9,321 bases of DNA from a virus (IMGVR_UViG_2695420859_000017); one strand, 5' to 3'. Numbered from the stretch's first letter, positions 1 through 9,321 are shown. Notes: generated by a model from the sequence alone, not told the origin. Program-made: numbers and translations.

Positions 1-769
1 TGTTTTTCAGGCGGGTGAATGCCTGACTGGTTTCATCCGCCCTGTCAGTCACATCCTGCTTAAGTGCGGAAAAGGCAGTTTCCATCTCAGCGAGGCGCTG
101 CTCAGTGGCGCTCAGTTTTTCCTGCACATGTTCAGCGACAGCGGTCACCGCTTCATGCACGTCATTCAGACGGGCGTCATCGCTGGCCTGTTTGCGGCCA
201 AAAATGGATTTCACCTTTTCGGTCAGGGCGGTGAACACGGTTTCAGGCAGGTCTTCAAATTCCAGCTCAACGGGCGTTGCCACTGAAATCAGGTTTTCAG
301 GGCTTAATTTGAAGCGGTTCAGGGGGTTGTGTTTTGCCGTGCGGCAGAATTCCAGGTATTCCGTGCCGAGGCTTGCCGGGTCATCGGTGACAGCCAGCCC
401 CACCAGATAACATTTGCCGGTATTGGCAAAGTTCGGCTGAATTTCCATTGAGGTGTAGACCTTCTGCGCGGCCTTGTTCATCGCGATAAGGTCATCGGTC
501 GGGGTGATTTTCGCAAACAGCGCCCATTTGCCTTTCAGCGCCGAATCGTCATCAATCTTTTCGGCCTTCAGTTCGGCCACATCGCCATAACGTTTAAAAA
601 TACCGTCAGGCAGGATGCCGCGCAGATGTTCCAGGTTAATGCGGCAACCATAGACACGCGGGTCAAAGGTTTCCGCCATTTCCTGAATATCCTGCGCACT
701 GATGACACGCCCGTCACAGGTGTCACCCTCAACGCCGATACGAAAGAATTTTGAGACTTTTTTTGCCAT
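1..769 (-). CDS. O: Capsid scaffolding protein GpO, partial (start codon at 767..769; 3' end lies beyond the window start)
   Basis: Reverse complement of 700..769 translates MAKKVSKFFRIGVEGDTCDGRVIS, which I recognise as the N-terminus of P2 GpO. The frame is open to position 1. It is absent from the ORF track because its stop is outside the window. It is divergent from the terminase gene, as in P2. Confidence 0.85.
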   Translation of the reverse strand, partial: MAKKVSKFFRIGVEGDTCDGRVISAQDIQEMAETFDPRVYGCRINLEHLRGILPDGIFKRYGDVAELKAEKIDDDSALKGKWALFAKITPTDDLIAMNKAAQKVYTSMEIQPNFANTGKCYLVGLAVTDDPASLGTEYLEFCRTAKHNPLNRFKLSPENLISVATPVELEFEDLPETVFTALTEKVKSIFGRKQASDDARLNDVHEAVTAVAEHVQEKLSATEQRLAEMETAFSALKQDVTDRADETSQAFTRLKN

Positions 770-806
770 TGTCAGGAGTCCTGAATAGTGATTAGAGGAG
801 TCACAT

Positions 807-826
807 GTCGGCATCAGTTTCCCGAC
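807..826. promoter_or_regulatory. Dyad GTCGG-N10-CCGAC in the divergent O/P intergenic region; possible activator or operator site for the late promoters
   Basis: Seen directly: 5-bp perfect inverted repeat with a 10-bp spacer, between the O start (769) and P start (943). It does not match the TGT-N12-ACA spacing that I recall for Ogr-dependent late promoters, so function is unassigned. Confidence 0.2.
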
Positions 827-942
827 GATGCGCATCCTCCGCCATCAGTCCCGGATGGCTTATCGCTGACACAACAGCACCTTAGCGAATCGCGGGGCGC
901 GACTCAGTAGCCTTGCCGTGTATTCATCACGGCGAGGTATTC

Positions 943-2715
943 ATGACCATCACCACAGACACCACTCTTTTACACGACCCGCGTCGTCAGGCGGCGCTGC
1001 TGTACTGGCAGGGGTTTTCCGTGCCGCAGATTGCCGCCATGTTGCAGATGAAACGCCCGACGGTGCAGAGCTGGAAACAGCGCGACGGCTGGGACAGCGT
1101 TGCCCCCATCAGCCGTGTCGAAATGAGCCTGGAAGCGCGGCTGACCCAGCTCATCATCAAACCGCAGAAAACCGGCGGTGACTTCAAGGAAATTGACCTG
1201 CTCGGACGCCAGATTGAACGACTGGCACGGGTAAACCGCTACAGTCAGACCGGCAACGAGGCAGACCTTAATCCGAACGTCGCTAACCGCAACAAAGGCG
1301 AGCGTCGCAAACCGAAAAAGAATTTTTTCAGTGACGAAGCCATCGAAAAGCTGGAGCAGATTTTCTTTGAGCAGTCTTTCGACTATCAGTTGCACTGGTA
1401 TCGCGCCGGGCTTGAGCACCGCATCCGCGATATACTGAAATCCCGCCAGATTGGCGCAACGTTTTATTTTTCCCGCGAGGCGCTGCTGCGCGCCCTGAAA
1501 ACCGGCCATAACCAGATTTTTCTGTCGGCCAGTAAAACGCAGGCGTATGTGTTCCGCGAATACATCATCGCCTTTGCCCGTCTGGTTGACGTTGACCTGA
1601 CCGGTGACCCGATTGTCCTGGGCAATAACGGCGCAAAACTAATTTTTCTCGGCACCAACTCCAACACCGCGCAGAGCCATAACGGCGACCTGTACGTCGA
1701 CGAGATTTTCTGGATCCCGAATTTTCAGGTACTGCGTAAGGTGGCATCAGGTATGGCCTCACAGAGTCACCTGCGCTCGACCTATTTCTCCACCCCGTCC
1801 ACGCTGGCGCACGACGCCTACCCGTTCTGGTCAGGTGAACTGTTCAACCGGGGACGCGCCAGCGCCGCCGAACGCGTGGAAATCGACGTCAGTCATAACG
1901 CCCTTGCCGGTGGTCTTCTCTGTGCGGACGGCCAGTGGCGGCAGATTGTCACCATTGAGGATGCCCTGAAAGGTGGCTGCACACTGTTCGACATTGAGCA
2001 GCTCAAACGTGAAAACAGCGCCGACGATTTTAAAAACCTGTTCATGTGTGAATTTGTTGACGACAAGGCGTCGGTGTTCCCGTTCGAGGAGCTGCAACGC
2101 TGCATGGTCGACACGCTGGAAGAATGGGAAGACTATGCGCCGTTTGCCGCCAATCCGTTCGGCTCACGTCCGGTATGGATTGGTTACGACCCGTCACACC
2201 GTGGCGACAGTGCCGGATGCGTGGTGCTGGCACCGCCGGTGGTGGCCGGTGGCAAATTCAGAATACTTGAGCGTCACCAGTGGAAAGGCATGGACTTTGC
2301 CACCCAGGCTGAATCCATCCGCAAACTCACCGAAAAATACAACGTCGAATACATCGGAATTGATGCCACCGGCCTCGGTGTCGGCGTGTTCCAGCTCGTT
2401 CGCTCGTTCTATCCCGCCGCGCGCGATATCCGCTACACGCCGGAAATGAAAACCGCAATGGTGCTCAAGGCAAAAGACGTTATTCGCCGTGGCTGTCTGG
2501 AATATGACGTCAGCGCCACCGACATCACCAGCTCGTTTATGGCTATCCGCAAGACCATGACCAGCAGCGGACGCAGCGCCACCTATGAGGCCAGCCGCAG
2601 CGAGGAAGCCAGCCACGCCGACCTCGCCTGGGCGACCATGCACGCCCTGTTAAATGAGCCACTCACCGCCGGTATCAGCACCCCGCTGACATCCACCATT
2701 CTGGAGTTTTACTGA
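943..2715 (+). CDS. P: Terminase large (ATPase) subunit GpP
   Basis: 590-codon ORF beginning MTITTDTTLLHDPRRQAALLYWQGFSVPQIAAMLQMKRPTVQSWKQRDGWD, recognised as P2-family GpP. ATG at 943 follows GAGG at 933..936; the ORF-track start at 913 is an upstream TTG and less likely. Stop TGA overlaps the next ATG (ATGA at 2715..2718). Confidence 0.9.
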   Translation: MTITTDTTLLHDPRRQAALLYWQGFSVPQIAAMLQMKRPTVQSWKQRDGWDSVAPISRVEMSLEARLTQLIIKPQKTGGDFKEIDLLGRQIERLARVNRYSQTGNEADLNPNVANRNKGERRKPKKNFFSDEAIEKLEQIFFEQSFDYQLHWYRAGLEHRIRDILKSRQIGATFYFSREALLRALKTGHNQIFLSASKTQAYVFREYIIAFARLVDVDLTGDPIVLGNNGAKLIFLGTNSNTAQSHNGDLYVDEIFWIPNFQVLRKVASGMASQSHLRSTYFSTPSTLAHDAYPFWSGELFNRGRASAAERVEIDVSHNALAGGLLCADGQWRQIVTIEDALKGGCTLFDIEQLKRENSADDFKNLFMCEFVDDKASVFPFEELQRCMVDTLEEWEDYAPFAANPFGSRPVWIGYDPSHRGDSAGCVVLAPPVVAGGKFRILERHQWKGMDFATQAESIRKLTEKYNVEYIGIDATGLGVGVFQLVRSFYPAARDIRYTPEMKTAMVLKAKDVIRRGCLEYDVSATDITSSFMAIRKTMTSSGRSATYEASRSEEASHADLAWATMHALLNEPLTAGISTPLTSTILEFY

Positions 2716-3872
2716 TGAGCAAGAAAAAAGGGAAAACACCGCAACCTGCGGCAAAAACAATGATCGCCAGCGCCCCGAAAATGGAGGCATTCACCTTTGG
2801 CGAGCCGGTACCGGTACTCGACCGCCGTGACATTCTTGATTACGTCGAATGCATCAGTAACGGCAGATGGTATGAGCCACCGGTCAGCTTTACCGGTCTG
2901 GCAAAAAGCCTGCGTGCCGCCGTGCATCACAGCTCCCCGATTTACGTCAAACGCAATATTCTGGCCTCGACATTTATCCCGCATCCGTGGCTTTCACAAC
3001 AGGATTTCAGCCGCTTTGTGCTGGATTTTCTGGTGTTCGGTAATGCGTTTCTGGAAAAGCGTTACAGCACCACCGGTAAGGTCATCAGACTGGAAACCTC
3101 ACCGGCAAAATATACCCGCCGTGGTGTGGAAGAGGATGTTTACTGGTGGGTGCCGTCCTTCAACGAGCCGACAGCCTTCACGCCCGGCTCCGTGTTTCAC
3201 CTGCTGGAGCCGGATATTAATCAGGAGCTGTACGGCCTGCCGGAATATCTCAGCGCCCTTAATTCTGCCTGGCTGAATGAGTCGGCCACGCTGTTTCGCC
3301 GCAAGTATTACGAAAACGGTGCTCATGCCGGATATATCATGTACGTCACTGATGCCGTGCAGGATCGCAACGATATCGAAATGCTTCGCGAAAACATGGT
3401 TAAGTCGAAAGGCCGCAACAACTTTAAAAATCTGTTTCTCTATGCCCCACAGGGGAAAGCCGACGGCATTAAAATTATCCCGCTCAGTGAAGTGGCAACG
3501 AAGGACGATTTTTTTAATATCAAAAAAGCCAGCGCCGCAGACCTGCTGGACGCGCACCGCATCCCTTTTCAGTTGATGGGCGGCAAGCCGGAGAACGTCG
3601 GGTCGCTGGGTGATATTGAGAAAGTGGCAAAGGTCTTTGTACGCCGTGGCTGTCTGGAATATGACGTCAGCGCCACCGACATCACCAGCTCGTTTATGGC
3701 TATCCGCAAGACCATGACCAGCAGCGGACGCAGCGCCACCTATGAGGCCAGCCGCAGCGAGGAAGCCAGCCACGCCGACCTCGCCTGGGCGACCATGCAC
3801 GCCCTGTTAAATGAGCCACTCACCGCCGGTATCAGCACCCCGCTGACATCCACCATTCTGGAGTTTTACTGA
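2715..3872 (+). pseudogene. Chimeric ORF: portal (GpQ) N-terminal ~309 codons fused in frame to a duplicated terminase C-terminal 76 codons
   Basis: Residues 1 to ~309 match the full portal copy at 4916..5935. From about nt 3642 the sequence shows no differences on visual comparison from terminase 2485..2715 (RRGCLEYDVSATDITSSFMAIRK...STILEFY), ending at a second copy of the P-stop/Q-start overlap. Confidence 0.55.
3642..3872 (+). repeat. Duplicate copy of the terminase 3' end (equals 2485..2715)
   Basis: Visual base-by-base comparison of 3642..3872 with 2485..2715 found no differences, including the terminal tactgATGagc junction. Confidence 0.8.
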
Positions 3873-4271
3873 TGAGCAAGAAAAAAGGGAAAACACCGCA
3901 ACCTGCGGCAAAAAAAATGACCGCCAGCACCCCGAAAATGGAGGCATTCACCTTTGGCGAGCCGGTGCCGGTACTCGACCGCCGTGACATTCTGGATTAC
4001 GTCGAATGCATCAGTAACGGCAGATGGTATGAGCCACCGGTCAGCTTTACCGGTCTGGCAAAAAGCCTGCGTGCTGCCGTGCATCACAGCTCACCGATTT
4101 ACGTCAAACGCAATATTCTGGCGTCGACATTTATCCCGCATCCGTGGCTTTCCCAGCAGGATTTCAGCCGCTTTGTGCTGGATTTTCTGGTGTTCGGTAA
4201 TGCGTTTCTGGAAAAGCGTTACAGCACCACCGGTAAAGTTATCAGGCTGGAAACCTCACCGGCAAAATATA
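3872..4271 (+). pseudogene. Portal (GpQ) 5' fragment, ~133 codons, diverged allele
   Basis: Begins MSKKKGKTPQPAAKKMTASTPKMEAF and tracks the portal to ...ETSPAKY. It differs from the other two copies by scattered single-base changes (KTMIASAP becomes KKMTASTP, plus apparently synonymous changes). After ~4271 the portal frame runs into unrelated sequence and stops at 4471. Confidence 0.55.
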
Positions 4272-4916
4272 TCGGTGTTCCCGTTCGAGGAGCTGCAACG
4301 CTGCATGGTCGACACGCTGGAAGAATGGGAAGACTATGCACCCTTTGCCGCCAATCCGTTCGGCTCCCGCCCGGTATGGATTGGTTACGACCCGTCACAC
4401 CGTGGCGACAGCGCCGGATGCGTGGTGCTGGCACCGCCGGTGGTGGCCGGTGGCAAATTCAGAATACTTGAGCGTCACCAGTGGAAAGGCATGGACTTTG
4501 CCACCCAGGCGGAATCCATCCGCAAACTCACCGAAAAATACAACGTCGAATACATCGGTATTGATGCCACCGGCCTCGGTGTCGGCGTGTTCCAGCTCGT
4601 GCGCTCGTTCTATCCTGCCGCGCGCGACATCCGCTACACGCCGGAAATGAAAACCGCAATGGTGCTCAAGGCAAAAGACGTTATCCGCCGTGGCTGTCTG
4701 GAATACGACGTCAGCGCCACCGACATCACCAGCTCGTTTATGGCTATCCGTAAGACCATGACCAGCAGCGGACGCAGCGCCACCTATGAGGCCAGCCGCA
4801 GCGAGGAAGCCAGCCACGCCGACCTCGCCTGGGCGACCATGCACGCCCTGTTAAATGAGCCACTCACCGCCGGTATCAGCACCCCGCTGACATCCACCAT
4901 TCTGGAGTTTTACTGA
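4272..4916 (+). pseudogene. Terminase (GpP) 3' fragment, ~214 codons, diverged allele, out of frame with the preceding portal fragment
   Basis: 4272..4916 corresponds to terminase 2071..2715 (VFPFEELQRCMVDTLEEWEDYAPFAANPF ... STILEFY) with several apparently synonymous single-base differences. It lies in a different frame from the portal fragment upstream; the ORF-track entry 3954..4916 is this frame reading backwards by chance. Confidence 0.55.
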
Positions 4917-5935
4917 TGAGCAAGAAAAAAGGGAAAACACCGCAACCTGCGGCAAAAACAATGATCGCCAGCGCCCCGAAAATGGAGGCATTCACCTTTG
5001 GCGAGCCGGTACCGGTACTCGACCGCCGTGACATTCTTGATTACGTCGAATGCATCAGTAACGGCAGATGGTATGAGCCACCGGTCAGCTTTACCGGTCT
5101 GGCAAAAAGCCTGCGTGCCGCCGTGCATCACAGCTCCCCGATTTACGTCAAACGCAATATTCTGGCCTCGACATTTATCCCGCATCCGTGGCTTTCACAA
5201 CAGGATTTCAGCCGCTTTGTGCTGGATTTTCTGGTGTTCGGTAATGCGTTTCTGGAAAAGCGTTACAGCACCACCGGTAAGGTCATCAGACTGGAAACCT
5301 CACCGGCAAAATATACCCGCCGTGGTGTGGAAGAGGATGTTTACTGGTGGGTGCCGTCCTTCAACGAGCCGACAGCCTTCGCGCCCGGCTCCGTGTTTCA
5401 CCTGCTGGAGCCGGATATTAATCAGGAACTGTACGGCCTGCCGGAATATCTCAGCGCCCTTAACTCTGCCTGGCTGAATGAGTCGGCCACGCTGTTCCGC
5501 CGCAAGTATTACGAAAATGGCGCACATGCCGGATACATCATGTACGTCACTGATGCCGTGCAGGACCGCAACGATATCGAAATGCTTCGCGAAAACATGG
5601 TCAAGTCGAAAGGCCGCAACAACTTTAAAAATCTGTTTCTCTATGCCCCACAGGGAAAAGCCGACGGCATTAAAATTATCCCGCTCAGTGAAGTGGCGAC
5701 GAAGGACGATTTTTTTAATATCAAAAAAGCCAGCGCGGAAGATCTAATGAGTGCCCATCGAGTCCCCCCGCAAATGATGGGGATGATGCCTAATAATGCG
5801 GGAGGATTTGGCGATGTAGTTAAAGCGGCTAAAGTTTTTGTCAGGAATGAGTTAGGGCATCTACAATCGCGAATGAAGGAATTGAACTCATGGATAGGTG
5901 AAACAGTTATAACATTTAACAATTACTCGTTATAA
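4916..5935 (+). CDS. Q: Portal protein GpQ, full length (339 aa), with a diverged AT-rich 3' end
   Basis: ORF starting MSKKKGKTPQPAAKTMIASAPKMEAFTFGEPVPVLDRRDILDYVECISNGRWYEPP, recognised as the P2-family portal. ATG overlaps the stop of the preceding terminase-derived segment. It is the only copy with a portal-type C-terminus and stop. Confidence 0.85.
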   Translation: MSKKKGKTPQPAAKTMIASAPKMEAFTFGEPVPVLDRRDILDYVECISNGRWYEPPVSFTGLAKSLRAAVHHSSPIYVKRNILASTFIPHPWLSQQDFSRFVLDFLVFGNAFLEKRYSTTGKVIRLETSPAKYTRRGVEEDVYWWVPSFNEPTAFAPGSVFHLLEPDINQELYGLPEYLSALNSAWLNESATLFRRKYYENGAHAGYIMYVTDAVQDRNDIEMLRENMVKSKGRNNFKNLFLYAPQGKADGIKIIPLSEVATKDDFFNIKKASAEDLMSAHRVPPQMMGMMPNNAGGFGDVVKAAKVFVRNELGHLQSRMKELNSWIGETVITFNNYSL

Positions 5936-5941
5936 ACCCTG

Positions 5942-5965
5942 CAGGCTTTGGCTCACCAAAGCCTG
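5942..5965. terminator. Hairpin between the convergent portal gene and the cargo operon (10-bp perfect stem CAGGCTTTGG / CCAAAGCCTG, 4-nt loop)
   Basis: Seen directly. Lies in the 35-bp gap between the Q stop (5935) and the minus-strand stop at 5971. No strong T-tract on either side, so intrinsic-terminator strength is uncertain. Confidence 0.45.
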
Positions 5966-5970
5966 TAAGA

Positions 5971-6588
5971 TCAAGCAGATAGGCAAAACGTTTCTGTTTG
6001 CCCCAAGTGTTCAAACACAGTAATCGATGTTACTTTTCCGGCACTTATTTTGTTAAGGAACTTCAATATTTGTTGAGGCTCCTCCATGACTGCTGTTTTC
6101 TTGATTATAAATCCCTCAAGATTTTTCAAGCTGTATCGCTGACTTGAGTTCTCAAGAGCAGCAATCATTGCCGAACTGCGCATATCTCTATGTCCACTAG
6201 CTCTACAAACGACAGCATAATTTAAATTAAGCTCTACAAAATTTTGCCTTGTCAACTCTGGAAGGTGTTTACATACAAAATGAAATAAAGTCGTAACACC
6301 TTCATGTATTTTCAACCTTATATCATCCTTTTGTGAACGTCCTTCTTTAAATTCAATGAAGTACAATTTATCTTCATATAAAAATAAAGCATCCGGTGAT
6401 TTTTCTTTAAACTCACGCTTATAAACAGGCGAGCAATTTAACACCGTATCATAGTTAAAGCCCTTCGAATCACAAATAATAAAATTCCGAGCCCCTGCAT
6501 CATTGTAGCTTAATCCGGTTACATCAACCATTGAATCAGGGTATACTTCACACAGTTTTCTAAAAACAAGTTCCTCATTAGAAATCAT
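5971..6588 (-). CDS. Hypothetical 205-aa protein, second gene of the cargo operon; family not recognised; possible PD-(D/E)xK-like nuclease motifs
   Basis: ATG at 6586..6588 is preceded by AGGAG (reverse complement of 6596..6600) at 7-nt spacing and overlaps the upstream gene by 11 nt (ATGATTTCTAA). Strongly AT-rich. Contains FIICD (res 36-40) and LFLYEDK / FIEFK (res 68-81), which could be PD-(D/E)xK motifs II and III; this is inference only. Confidence 0.7.
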   Translation of the reverse strand: MISNEELVFRKLCEVYPDSMVDVTGLSYNDAGARNFIICDSKGFNYDTVLNCSPVYKREFKEKSPDALFLYEDKLYFIEFKEGRSQKDDIRLKIHEGVTTLFHFVCKHLPELTRQNFVELNLNYAVVCRASGHRDMRSSAMIAALENSSQRYSLKNLEGFIIKKTAVMEEPQQILKFLNKISAGKVTSITVFEHLGQTETFCLSA

Positions 6589-7906
6589 CCAAATACTCCT
6601 GATTCAATTCTTTTAATGGTGATGCCAAAAGATTAATTGCATATGCAACATTATCAGTAATATCAACAAAAGATGTAAACTCTTCCCCAGGGAATCGCTC
6701 GCTTATATAGAACCGATTTTCAATCCCAATTTTATCGCTATAATGTTTAAGAGCATCAATAATATACGGGCTATGTGTTGTAATTATTATATCAACCCCC
6801 ATAGACACTAACTCACAAATAATCTCAGCATAGAAAACCTGCCATTTTGGATGTAAGTTCACCTCTGGCTCATCAATAATCAGTAACGAGTTATCTACTG
6901 CTGCCCCGCACTTAACAAGCATATCAAGAATACCTAAAGACTTTATTCCTGACGCAATATTACCCGATGTGACTTTATAGCCTTGCTTCTCTAGAAAAAA
7001 ATCATTCTTTTCAATATCATAAACCACTTCACCACAGAAAGTAGCATTGATTTTGTTAGATATACGCAGTGACTCTTTTAAAAATGAGCCATCATCAAAA
7101 ATATCCGAATGCACAAATAAATTATAAACTGAATCGCTTAATTTTATTGATAGATCTTTCACATGCAATGGAACAGTTAGACGTCCTGATTCACCATTAC
7201 TATCAAATAAAGTTTTAGCAAAACGAACCAAATTATGAAATTGCATAATACTTGGAGAGTCAACATAGGTTGCGTCGACATATCCTAAGCCATCAGTATA
7301 ATCAAATTGTGATATACCATCTTTAGTCCATTTAATATCAATTAACTGACTAACACCATCAACAACTTCCAGAGATGCTTTAACTGGATTTTGATTACCC
7401 TTCTGAATAATTTCGCCTCTAAATTCAGAGTAAAAGGCCTTACGCAGAGCACGGTTGATAGCAGATAGCTCATCATCTGGCTCAAGCATTATATCTCTGA
7501 TTTTTCTTATATCAGAGAGTACAGAATCAGCCATCAATTCTGGAAGAAGCCCTTCCTCAATCAAATTATATAGATAACTCTCTCTCTCAGCCAAAGTTTT
7601 AGAGATATCTATTTTTAGAGAGGCATAAAACTTTCTTGGATTGAATAACTCTCTAATTTCCGGCGTAGCAGCAATATTAATCCTCCTACGCAGATTAAAA
7701 TATATTTTCTCTACGATAGATGTAATTCTATCCTCTTTGTCTTCTTCTAAATCCTCTTGATAACGAGATATCGCCTTTACCATTGAAAACAATATTTTCC
7801 CTACGGTACTCTTCCCCGTATCATTTTCACCAGTTATGACAGTTAAACCACCAACTGAAACATCAGCTTCTGCAATAGTTCCAAAATTATTAATTTTTAT
7901 ACGCAT
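6578..7906 (-). CDS. OLD/ABC-family (AAA_15/AAA_21-like) ATPase, 442 aa, with no Toprim or other nuclease domain
   Basis: N-terminal Walker A GENDTGKST (nt 7805..7831), C-terminal Walker B LLIIDEPE (nt 6863..6886) and H-loop TTHSP (nt 6767..6781), with ~300 residues between the Walker motifs. This layout is typical of OLD/GajA/AriA/PtuA-type ATPases. Spot counts of 60-nt lines give roughly 27-30% GC against about 60% in the structural genes. Confidence 0.8.
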   Translation of the reverse strand: MRIKINNFGTIAEADVSVGGLTVITGENDTGKSTVGKILFSMVKAISRYQEDLEEDKEDRITSIVEKIYFNLRRRINIAATPEIRELFNPRKFYASLKIDISKTLAERESYLYNLIEEGLLPELMADSVLSDIRKIRDIMLEPDDELSAINRALRKAFYSEFRGEIIQKGNQNPVKASLEVVDGVSQLIDIKWTKDGISQFDYTDGLGYVDATYVDSPSIMQFHNLVRFAKTLFDSNGESGRLTVPLHVKDLSIKLSDSVYNLFVHSDIFDDGSFLKESLRISNKINATFCGEVVYDIEKNDFFLEKQGYKVTSGNIASGIKSLGILDMLVKCGAAVDNSLLIIDEPEVNLHPKWQVFYAEIICELVSMGVDIIITTHSPYIIDALKHYSDKIGIENRFYISERFPGEEFTSFVDITDNVAYAINLLASPLKELNQEYLDDF

Positions 7907-7946
7907 AAACTATCTCACTGTACGCCAGATATCCAACCTTATGAAT

Positions 7947-7975
7947 ACTTTAGCATATTTCCAAAAAGATGACAC
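7947..7975 (-). promoter_or_regulatory. Candidate sigma70 promoter for the cargo operon (GTGTCA-N17-TAAAGT with a TG extended -10)
   Basis: Read on the minus strand between cos and the ATPase start codon. A 4/6 match at -35 and TGnTAAAGT at -10 would leave a ~40-nt 5' UTR. Pattern match by eye only. Confidence 0.25.
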
Positions 7976-7999
7976 TGGTGGTTGCAGGCCTCGCGCGCA

Positions 8000-8018
8000 G
8001 TGCTTTCCCCGCCTCGCC
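8000..8018 (-). other. cos: cos site: 19-nt cohesive-end sequence identical to P2 (GGCGAGGCGGGGAAAGCAC on the minus strand)
   Basis: Reverse complement of 8000..8018 is GGCGAGGCGGGGAAAGCAC, followed by CTGCGCGC, matching my recollection of the P2 left end. It sits in a GC-rich block, in the expected neighbourhood of the portal gene. Confidence 0.75.
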
Positions 8019-8112
8019 CGCCCGCTTCACGGGGCGGTTTTAATGCAGTTGCATAGATACTATGGATCCGCACCAGTCCTGACCGCACGCAGCCTGAACG
8101 GACATCCCCAGC

Positions 8113-8141
8113 GCATGCAAAAACATTCACTGGTTGCATGC
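8113..8141. other. Inverted repeat GCATGCAA-N13-TTGCATGC followed by CTTTTT
   Basis: Seen directly, ~100 bp from cos. Could be a protein-binding site or a weak terminator. Confidence 0.2.
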
Positions 8142-8302
8142 ATAGCTTTTTAAGTACGCCATACCGCAACTGTACATTTTTAAGCAATTGGCAACTTTAA
8201 AAAATTTACATTGCTTTCAAGACCTTATCATCCGTAGTCTCTGTTTTTTACTTTGAGCTACATCAATAAAATCTCAAACATGTTTAATGCAAAGCCCTTG
8301 TT

Positions 8303-8356
8303 ACACAACATAGAATGTATGTCTAGAAACAACGACATACTATATGTTGTGTTTTT
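8303..8356 (+). other. Long imperfect hairpin (arms ACACAACATAGAATGTATGTC / GACATACTATATGTTGTGT, 10-nt loop) followed by a T-run; terminator-like or sRNA 3' end
   Basis: Seen directly: 10-bp and 7-bp perfect stem segments separated by a small internal loop, then TTTTT at 8352..8356. An A-tract is lacking on the other side, so orientation is plus. Confidence 0.4.
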
Positions 8357-8418
8357 CCGGCTCTCTGTTCGGTGATATGCCAAATCACTTTGCGTTTAAA
8401 CAGAGCATTATTTCAGGG

Positions 8419-8433
8419 CAAGACTTCGCTCAA
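8419..8433 (+). repeat. 15-bp direct repeat CAAGACTTCGCTCAA, copy 1
   Basis: Exact 15-mer found again at 8683..8697; the two copies bracket the small ORF and its terminator. Confidence 0.5.
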
Positions 8434-8496
8434 AAGTCATTCCACCTAAGAAGCGCATATACCGGTGGAAGTTGCCCTCTACTTACAGGAGGCAAT

Positions 8497-8610
8497 ATGA
8501 AGAAATGCTATTACTGCATTCTCGTTCTGGCCCTCTTTGGCTATCCAAACGGTAGTCCGAGTGGTTTGTCAGTAAACGTCAGTAATATCAATGTCAGCAT
8601 TATGCTTTAA
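8497..8610 (+). CDS. Small hydrophobic peptide, 37 aa (MKKCYYCILVLALFGYPNGSPSGLSVNVSNINVSIML); function unknown
   Basis: ATG at 8497 is preceded by a consensus AGGAGG at 8487..8492 (4-nt spacing). Stop at 8608..8610 is followed 13 nt later by a strong intrinsic terminator. The N-terminus is KK followed by a ~13-residue hydrophobic stretch. Short length keeps confidence low. Confidence 0.35.
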   Translation: MKKCYYCILVLALFGYPNGSPSGLSVNVSNINVSIML

Positions 8611-8622
8611 TATGCTTCAAAC

Positions 8623-8652
8623 AAAAAAACCACCTGCCAGGGTGGTTTTTTT
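8623..8652. terminator. Rho-independent terminator, bidirectional form (AAAAAAACCACC-TGCCAG-GGTGGTTTTTTT)
   Basis: Seen directly: perfect GC-containing stem with a 6-nt loop, A-tract upstream and T7 downstream. Confidence 0.8.
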
Positions 8653-8682
8653 GCGCCCATCATCAATACGATGAAAGACTGA

Positions 8683-8697
8683 CAAGACTTCGCTCAA
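8683..8697 (+). repeat. 15-bp direct repeat CAAGACTTCGCTCAA, copy 2
   Basis: Identical to 8419..8433; AAGACT-like motifs also occur at 8675..8680 and 8696..8700. Confidence 0.5.
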
Positions 8698-8912
8698 GAC
8701 GAATTATGCGTCGACATAAGGTTACCCGCAATGATTTTATTAGACTAAATGGATGGCCTTTTATGACCCGGATCAAACGGCTGTCCTTACCGACATGCTA
8801 GTCACTCAATAGCATTTAGCCTTCTAATTCAGCATGCTATTGACCTTCTGCTGCCCCATAACTGCTCCGCATAAGCCATTCAATGCCATATCAAATCACG
8901 TTGTGTTTTTAC

Positions 8913-9321
8913 TCAAATGGGTAACGAGAACCCCGGCCACTCATCAGCAACCGGATACGTGAATTTTTTCCCGTCATAATTTACGGTCGCGCCACGCGCC
9001 AGCGCCTCAAGCTCCCATCGTTGCGGCCTGATACCGTTCTGAGCGAGGTCAACGCGGATACGGGTAATTTGCAATCGTTCAGACCTGGTCAGTCTGGCAG
9101 ATGGTGCAATTTCATGCGGTTTTAACGGGATTCCGTTTCTTTGCTGACGATTTGGTGTTCTCAGTCCGTGTTTTAATGCGCCCCTGAGCACCATCACTAC
9201 CTCCGGGTCACTCCATTCGATAACACCGTCATCTACCAGATTAAGCACTGCTGCGGCGTGCTCAGAAGGTGTGGGAGCCGGTAACGAAGTATCACCACCG
9301 GTGAGCTTTCCACAGTTATTG
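8913..9321 (-). CDS. Phage protein, 3' portion only (gene starts beyond the window end); probably the last gene of the early/replication operon
   Basis: The minus-strand frame is open from the window edge (…TGGDTSLPAPTPSEHAAAVLNLVDDGVIEWSDPEV…) to TGA at 8913..8915. The ORF-track start at 9248 is an internal GTG. GC content is backbone-like. Product assignment is positional inference only. Confidence 0.55.
   Translation of the reverse strand, partial: NNCGKLTGGDTSLPAPTPSEHAAAVLNLVDDGVIEWSDPEVVMVLRGALKHGLRTPNRQQRNGIPLKPHEIAPSARLTRSERLQITRIRVDLAQNGIRPQRWELEALARGATVNYDGKKFTYPVADEWPGFSLPI

Follow-up and report, generated by a model that had tools for sequence, protein, structure and literature searches.

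The 385-aa open reading frame (ORF) in which a P2-type portal gene runs in frame into the 3′ end of the large terminase gene most likely results from faulty assembly or, at best, from an accident private to one isolate, rather than being a gene with a role. With a probability of roughly 0.55, this fusion ORF is considered to be the by-product of a false duplication that arose by misassembly of two co-resident P2-like prophages. The stretch of DNA analyzed here (the window) is the entire 9,321-bp draft contig CYER01000057.1 of E. coli (GCA_001283965.1). It is composed of two haplotypes, named X and Y, between which it switches phase, and it carries two junctions that were found in none of the other sequences searched; in close relatives the locus has a single-copy layout.

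Extra DNA at the terminase/portal boundary

The window represents the late-gene end of a P2-like prophage and both of its ends lie inside P2 genes, gpO and gpA. It contains no N bases and corresponds to 7,120 bp of canonical P2-like prophage with 2,201 additional bases (1,157 + 1,044) at the terminase/portal boundary (Table 1). The genes and their order, gpP followed by gpQ with a TGATG stop/start overlap, the divergent gpO gene upstream and the gpA-gpQ hotspot and cos site downstream are those of the canonical P2 late operon, from which the window differs in that the 2,201 added bases contain two more portal starts and two more 3′ fragments of the terminase gene. No Pfam matches were obtained for the truncated portal ORF, and within the terminase 3′ fragment that follows it the gene caller selected an internal ORF of 163 aa (4425–4916). 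A scan for an exact Ogr-type dyad, TGT-N12-ACA, upstream of gpP found none. The hotspot, as defined in PMC9122126, carries cargo that lies outside the fusion and is given as context.

Table 1. Features of the 9,321-bp window (contig CYER01000057.1).
Feature	Position	Strand	Remarks
gpO capsid scaffold gene, 5′ part	1..769	-	truncated by contig end; PF05929; GPO family annotation in canonical relative L001
gpP large terminase, intact, 590 aa, haplotype X	943..2715	+	Terminase_5, Terminase_6N, Terminase_6C
Stretch of 207 bp identical in X and Y	2551..2757		switch of the contig from X to Y; from mismatch maps against L001, L006 and L004
Fusion ORF, 385 aa	2715..3872	+	Y-type portal residues 1–310 and X-type terminase residues 516–590
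Junction J1	3640..3645		Y portal nt ~926–930 and X terminase (canonical 2485); CGC microhomology
Piece 2, 627 bp, haplotype X	3645..4271	+	terminase tail and portal codons 1–133
Truncated portal ORF, 199 aa	3872..4471	+	133 portal residues, then terminase DNA read out of frame
Junction J2	4270..4272		X portal nt 400 and terminase at canonical 2070/2071; out of frame
Terminase 3′ fragment from about codon 377, haplotype Y	4272..4916	+	without its own start
Full-length portal, 339 aa	4916..5935	+	chimera of Y (N-terminal) and X (C-terminal); switch within identical stretch 5291–5380
P2 gpA-gpQ hotspot cargo	5971..7906	-	205-aa protein with no family assigned and 442-aa AAA_21/AAA_15 ATPase
P2 19-nt cohesive-end (cos) sequence, exact	8000..8018	-	0 mismatches; chance expectation 0.01
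gpA replication endonuclease gene, 3′ end	8913..9321	-	truncated by contig end; position of the replication endonuclease annotated in L001

The same locus was identified in seven complete E. coli genomes with 98.4–99.0% identity over 7,120 bp, the length of the window minus the added bases, and all seven have one terminase gene with one portal gene directly behind it. The 590-aa terminase protein is present in exact form in 428 blocks of the assembly collection, and a single portal follows in 10 of the 10 matches listed. The third portal copy, as the exact protein written in the contig, is present in this contig only among the indexed assemblies. The gpP and gpQ genes as such are ordinary, and their arrangement, for which no recurrence was found, belongs to no functional fusion family.

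The repeat copies consist of two haplotypes

Self-comparison of the window showed a gap-free match of 98.3% between 2071–3535 and 4272–5736, and further gap-free matches of 3626–4271 to 2469–3114 (97.2%) and to 4670–5315 (96.9%). The window was divided into piece 1 (1–3644), piece 2 (3645–4271) and piece 3 (4272–9321), and piece-1 coordinates are used below as canonical numbering. Pieces 1 and 3 are identical over 2551–3179; they show 13 differences in 2139–2550 and many more beginning at 3180. Thirteen sites, all in 2758–3089, set piece 2 apart from the other two. The parts that resemble the canonical relatives are piece 1 up to 2757, piece 2 throughout and piece 3 from 3090 on. Piece 2 has no mismatches to the loci L006 and L009 of two other E. 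coli assemblies, two mismatches to L001, and 99.7% identity to the canonical prophages of MB06022 and BUCT2930.

When the parts were put together by haplotype, two sequences with near-perfect database counterparts were obtained. Haplotype X (window 1–2757, 3915–4271 and 5316–9321; 7,120 bp) shows one mismatch over its full length to L006 and L009. Haplotype Y (window 4272–5380 and 3180–3644, that is, piece 3 for canonical 2071–3179 and piece 1 for 3180–3644; 1,574 bp) shows a single mismatch to L004, the P2-like prophage of E. coli O121 201805972, and the next best complete genome reaches 98.2%. The copies as they stand in the contig fit far less well: 72 mismatches to X (L006) and 14 to Y (L004) were counted for the first, and 26 and 12, respectively, for the third. 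The switches between haplotypes fall within stretches that do not differ between X and Y (canonical 2551–2757 and 3090–3179). The Y version of the middle segment is used twice in the contig and the X version once, and k-mers linking X-type canonical 3089 to 3115 and onward are absent from it.

The three "copies" are a mosaic of two natural haplotypes that are out of phase, and not an in-place duplication; X is the prophage carrying the ATPase hotspot and Y a P2-like prophage of the O121 type. An old in-place tandem duplication, which the 2–3% divergence among the three copies might suggest, was rejected, as the differences split into two database-matched haplotypes and the same-haplotype portions of the copies are identical. 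Three separate prophage alleles were likewise rejected, since two suffice.

A layout of equal length can be written in natural phase as X(1–3114), Y(2071–3644) and X(2488–7120). Up to k=91, no k-mer of the contig is missing from this layout, and the DNA of the fusion ORF is identical in both.

Sequence at the junctions

At J1 (3644/3645) the Y portal is joined to the X terminase; the join is flush, with three shared bases (CGC). At J2 (4271/4272) the X portal is joined to the terminase at 2070/2071, again flush and with zero or one shared base. Both are thus novel junctions with little or no homology, as is expected of a real tandem or template-switch duplication. The base at 3641, an A, is found in neither parent: the Y portal in L004 has C, and the terminase has T in X and C in Y. 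The best complete-genome matches to the portal allele at J1 have a single mismatch each over 85 portal-side bases. Since the A at 3641 is the sole difference between re-phased Y and L004 and lies 1–4 nt from J1, it is tied to the junction.

Two further features of the piece ends were considered. The 8-mer CGCCGTGG occurs at both ends of the X piece and might be taken as suggestive, and random breakpoints share such a sequence 4.4% of the time. The boundaries of de Bruijn graph nodes at a single k were also examined as a cause of the piece ends. Only 2071 fits, at k=69, and this fit requires that Y equals X upstream of 2139, and L004 has a Y-type base at 2070. The other three of the four ends, canonical 2485, 3114 and 3644, do not fall where the X/Y variants predict graph nodes to end.

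The junctions were not found elsewhere

Among 5,426 complete E. coli genomes, no place covering J1 and no true match to J2 could be identified. The sole place that bridged the J2 query, H36, proved to be a degraded P2 remnant with different breakpoints. The 2,201 bp of extra DNA were not found in the INPHARED phage records, and exact-pattern scans for J1 and J2 gave no match in IMG/VR, the GTDB representatives and the JGI metagenomes. A junction-peptide search of a collection of 5.8 billion protein clusters returned canonical portal or terminase fragments only. With the full-length fusion protein as query, ordinary portals and a few deletion-type chimeras were retrieved, and no protein in which a portal is followed by a terminase tail. 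In these comparisons, which concern other strains only, the duplication was missing from each complete genome of a related strain as well as from the remaining collections. Literature searches yielded nothing relevant on assembly GCA_001283965.1 and nothing usable on tandem duplications in P2.

The deletion-type chimeras, fusion ORFs of terminase and portal in degraded P2 remnants (P0190, 608 aa; locus L002), resemble the ORF studied here in that they are incidental gpP/gpQ chimeras of single assemblies. They were made by deletion and consist of an N-terminal part of the terminase followed by a C-terminal part of the portal, whereas the order of portal followed by terminase tail presupposes a junction of the duplication type and was encountered in no other sequence searched.

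Anatomy of the fusion ORF

The ORF reported in the preliminary description is indeed present in the deposited sequence and joins the portal in frame to the terminase C-terminus. Its portal part ends in ...AKVFVR and is followed by the 75 C-terminal residues of the terminase, RGCLEYDV...ILEFY. The Arg codon CGC at 3642–3644 is common to the portal and terminase parents, so that the earlier split into about 309 and 76 residues lies within the ambiguity of this codon. The product matches the profiles of P2-type gpQ (PBSX family) significantly: TIGR01540 (portal_PBSX) scores 232 bits (cutoff 166) over profile positions 1–296 of 320, and PF04860 (Phage_portal) scores 43.1 bits (cutoff 39.1). The C-terminus of the portal is incomplete, as the last 29–34 residues of the 339/344-aa portals (NEL...) are swapped for terminase sequence. 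On the terminase side, Terminase_6N is missing and the RNaseH-like nuclease domain Terminase_6C is represented by profile positions 97–154 of 155 only, so the product does not qualify as a gpP protein.

The fusion keeps the native portal start, with GGAG 8 nt upstream and an ATG that overlaps the upstream TGA as TGATG. If the DNA exists, translation of the fusion within the late operon would be plausible because this start is kept. The protein is on record once (CTY49476.1), from one contig; for a fusion under selection, recurrence or conservation would be expected.

The earlier observation that the second junction is out of frame was confirmed for J2. The accompanying caveat that a frame is preserved by chance in about one of three cases also stands, as one in-frame junction out of two (1/3 each) is at chance level. 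The part of the preliminary description that found no support is the proposed interference of the fusion with packaging: the ORF is known from a single contig with no counterpart in any search, its tail is a fragment of a nuclease domain, and the contig is phase-switched between two prophage haplotypes. An assembly artefact, which the same description had named as an outcome that would refute its proposal, now appears as the leading, if unproven, explanation for the fusion.

Discussion

The misassembly that is favored here would have started from an isolate carrying two P2-like prophages, X and Y. The assembler would have threaded the wrong phase through stretches common to both, so that the Y middle segment was used twice and the X version, left over, was placed between the chimeric pieces. 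Chaining of the pieces end to end would then have produced two non-homologous joins, J1 and J2, for which read support would be lacking. The cell itself would have one ordinary terminase and one ordinary portal gene per prophage and would make no fusion protein. Several observations argue for this course of events. The anomaly is confined to the 1.6 kb in which the haplotypes interleave, and the phase of the contig is demonstrably wrong; one branch is doubled and the other left over; the contig is of small size, with both ends inside phage genes; and neither junction nor a junction-spanning protein was found elsewhere. In addition, the sole base of re-phased Y that differs from L004 adjoins J1 and matches neither parent, and could be unsupported sequence.

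False "heterotype" duplications, in which divergent copies come to lie next to each other, in some cases linked by unsupported sequence that erroneous gap filling has introduced, have been described (Ko et al., 2022, PMC9516828). The window shares with them the adjacent diverged versions, the extra gene copies, the chimeric gene models, the variant-specific sequence in each copy and the single copy in better assemblies of relatives. Its copies carry sequence specific to two haplotypes or paralogues and are chimeras as written. It differs from them in that two paralogous prophages take the place of two alleles. Furthermore, heterotype duplications usually have a gap between the copies, whereas here, where the contig sequence alone was compared, no gap separates the copies, the joins being flush, non-homologous and free of N.

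This last point counts against misassembly and in favor of the alternative that J1 and J2 are real and private to the strain, which has a substantial, if minority, chance of being correct. It would imply a recent hybrid partial duplication that arose when two P2-like genomes twice underwent unequal, non-homologous exchange or template switching. The most economical layout would be X(...3114), Y(2070–3644) and X(2485...) in canonical numbering, of which the deposited contig would be a mis-phased version; as all k-mers up to k=91 are present in the natural-phase layout, short reads from it could give this contig. The joins share only 0–3 bp, and for such an adjacency a de Bruijn contig needs reads or a post-assembly joining step. 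Moreover, three of the four piece ends are off the predicted graph-node ends, and the Y segment is sharply bounded at both sides: an L004-like Y differs from X beyond both segment ends, and a free Y contig should run past 2070 and 3644. J1 and J2 each combine X with Y, which is what exchange between two phage genomes predicts, and the non-parental base beside J1 would also fit error-prone joining. In these respects the window resembles products of microhomology-mediated template switching or unequal illegitimate exchange involving co-resident phage genomes, with two backward jumps of ~1.0–1.2 kb, hybrid junctions of two templates and a non-templated base at one of them. Tandem duplications of P2 DNA were reportedly mapped by electron microscopy in the 1970s by Chattoraj and Inman. 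Any duplication event would have to be recent, because the same-haplotype portions of the copies are identical. The prophage would retain an intact terminase and portal, and the fusion and the truncated portal ORF would be neutral or mildly harmful by-products, transcribed with the late operon only, the fusion being translated from its native GGAG/ATG by TGATG coupling. In contrast to known template-switch duplications, two rare non-homologous events, each between different prophages, would be needed within the same 1.6 kb, a region to which misassembly would be confined naturally, and the junctions are known from a single deposited draft contig whose phase is at least partly wrong.

The remaining readings are far less probable. 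There is a slight chance that both junctions are real and sit on a distinct 2.2-kb molecule or amplified unit, in which Y 2070–3644 and X 2485–3114 would form a self-closing cycle, present in part of the culture and threaded into the X prophage by the assembler. Joined through J1 and J2, these parts do close into a cycle of exactly 2,201 bp (1,574 + 630 minus the three shared bases), but this cycle would consist of gene fragments only, with no replication or mobility function, and nothing comparable was found elsewhere. That the fusion is a selected gene or has a function is very improbable. The preserved frame at J1 would agree with it, as would the native start with its ribosome-binding site, and large terminase C-terminal ends contact the portal in several phages. 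Against this stand the lack of a second occurrence in any collection, the out-of-frame state of the neighboring J2, the one-in-three chance of an in-frame join, the tail with its piece of Terminase_6C and the portal deprived of its last ~30 residues. As the copies are undiverged, there has been no time for selection on the fusion, which is private, undiverged and unselected whatever its origin. Hardly to be expected, too, is a chain of events in which the junctions are real, made by two unequal exchanges, and a late-operon fusion protein, trans-activated by a heteroimmune P2-like phage or a P4-like satellite, would co-assemble into portal rings and poison DNA packaging, so acting as an accidental prophage-borne exclusion factor.

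If the junctions of the window were real, they would provide a small, clean example of a hybrid duplication between two resident prophages, still with no sign of a function. The case serves mainly as a caution, since CTY49476.1, a chimeric "phage capsid protein" known from this single draft contig, is now listed in NCBI nr and in protein collections derived from there, where it could be misread as a gene fusion or as evidence of extra portal copies. A cheap check of general use is to re-phase the repeat copies against close relatives and to see whether two natural haplotypes emerge, which suits prophage-rich draft genomes.

Bases at the two junctions

At J1, the join at 3644/3645 between the portal gene (gpQ) of haplotype Y and the terminase gene (gpP) of haplotype X, the adjoining A at window position 3641 is absent from both parental sequences, the corresponding base being C in the Y portal, T in the X terminase and C in the Y terminase. 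When the re-phased Y segment was compared with its relative, the O121 prophage (L004), this A was the sole difference. The last base ahead of piece 3, window position 4271, is likewise an A. Piece 2 starts in the 8-mer CGCCGTGG (codons Arg-Arg-Gly; window 3642-3649), which has a second site at canonical 3117-3124 (window 3117-3124 and 5318-5325), 2 nt past the piece 2 end point in the parental portal. Sharing of an 8-mer this close is expected in 4.4% of random breakpoints.

A further ORF crosses J2, the join at 4271/4272 from the X portal to the terminase. Its first part is read from the second portal copy, in a frame other than that of the portal, and beyond the join it continues in the terminase frame through the C-terminal region; it shows no sign of a dedicated start signal.

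Features in the window and in other records
Feature	Position	Strand	Remark
320-aa ORF across J2, TTG start	window 3954-4916	+	ORF call
Two hotspot cargo genes, overlapping	window 5971-7906	-	P2 gpA-gpQ hotspot
P2 19-nt cohesive-end sequence, GGCGAGGCGGGGAAAGCAC	window 8000-8018	-	exact match
'Oxidoreductase'-named terminase fragments	L005 3874-5645 (NZ_CP067342.1); cluster of P0016		

Chimeric and fragmented gpP/gpQ genes in other assemblies

Deletion-type chimeric ORFs were identified in degraded P2 remnants of other assemblies (L002 4722-5825, NZ_AP027622.1; P0152, P0154, P0190, P0194, and P0230). Among them are a 608-aa ORF, in which the ATPase part of the terminase is joined in frame to the portal from residue ~59 onward, and portals whose N-termini are foreign. 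Chimeras of gpP and gpQ that arise incidentally are thus no rarity. In public records, C-terminal fragments of frameshifted or truncated P2 terminase genes widely carry the label 'oxidoreductase', which is a propagated naming error.

Left flank and hotspot cargo

The left flank (window 1-2138), which covers most of gpP and the start of gpO, diverges from the MB06022 (L001) and O121 (L004) prophages alike by about 1.6-1.8%. It is identical except for one base to L006 and L009, the two E. coli assemblies that re-phased X matches with a single mismatch, and thus reflects the usual mosaicism among P2-like prophages with the same hotspot cargo. This cargo occupies a known P2 hotspot (PMC9122126), and the exact cos copy shows that in this phage it lies between the portal gene and cos. 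The larger gene encodes a 442-aa AAA_21/AAA_15 ATPase, whose top PADLOC matches (HEC-02A, PD-T4-4_A, AriA, and PtuA) are all partial and in most cases cover its C-terminal part. Its 205-aa partner had no matches in Pfam, NCBIfam or PADLOC. Both proteins belong at full length to PHROG families of unknown function (phrog_14430 and phrog_25533). The ATPase and its partner resemble an uncharacterised, candidate two-gene defence system.
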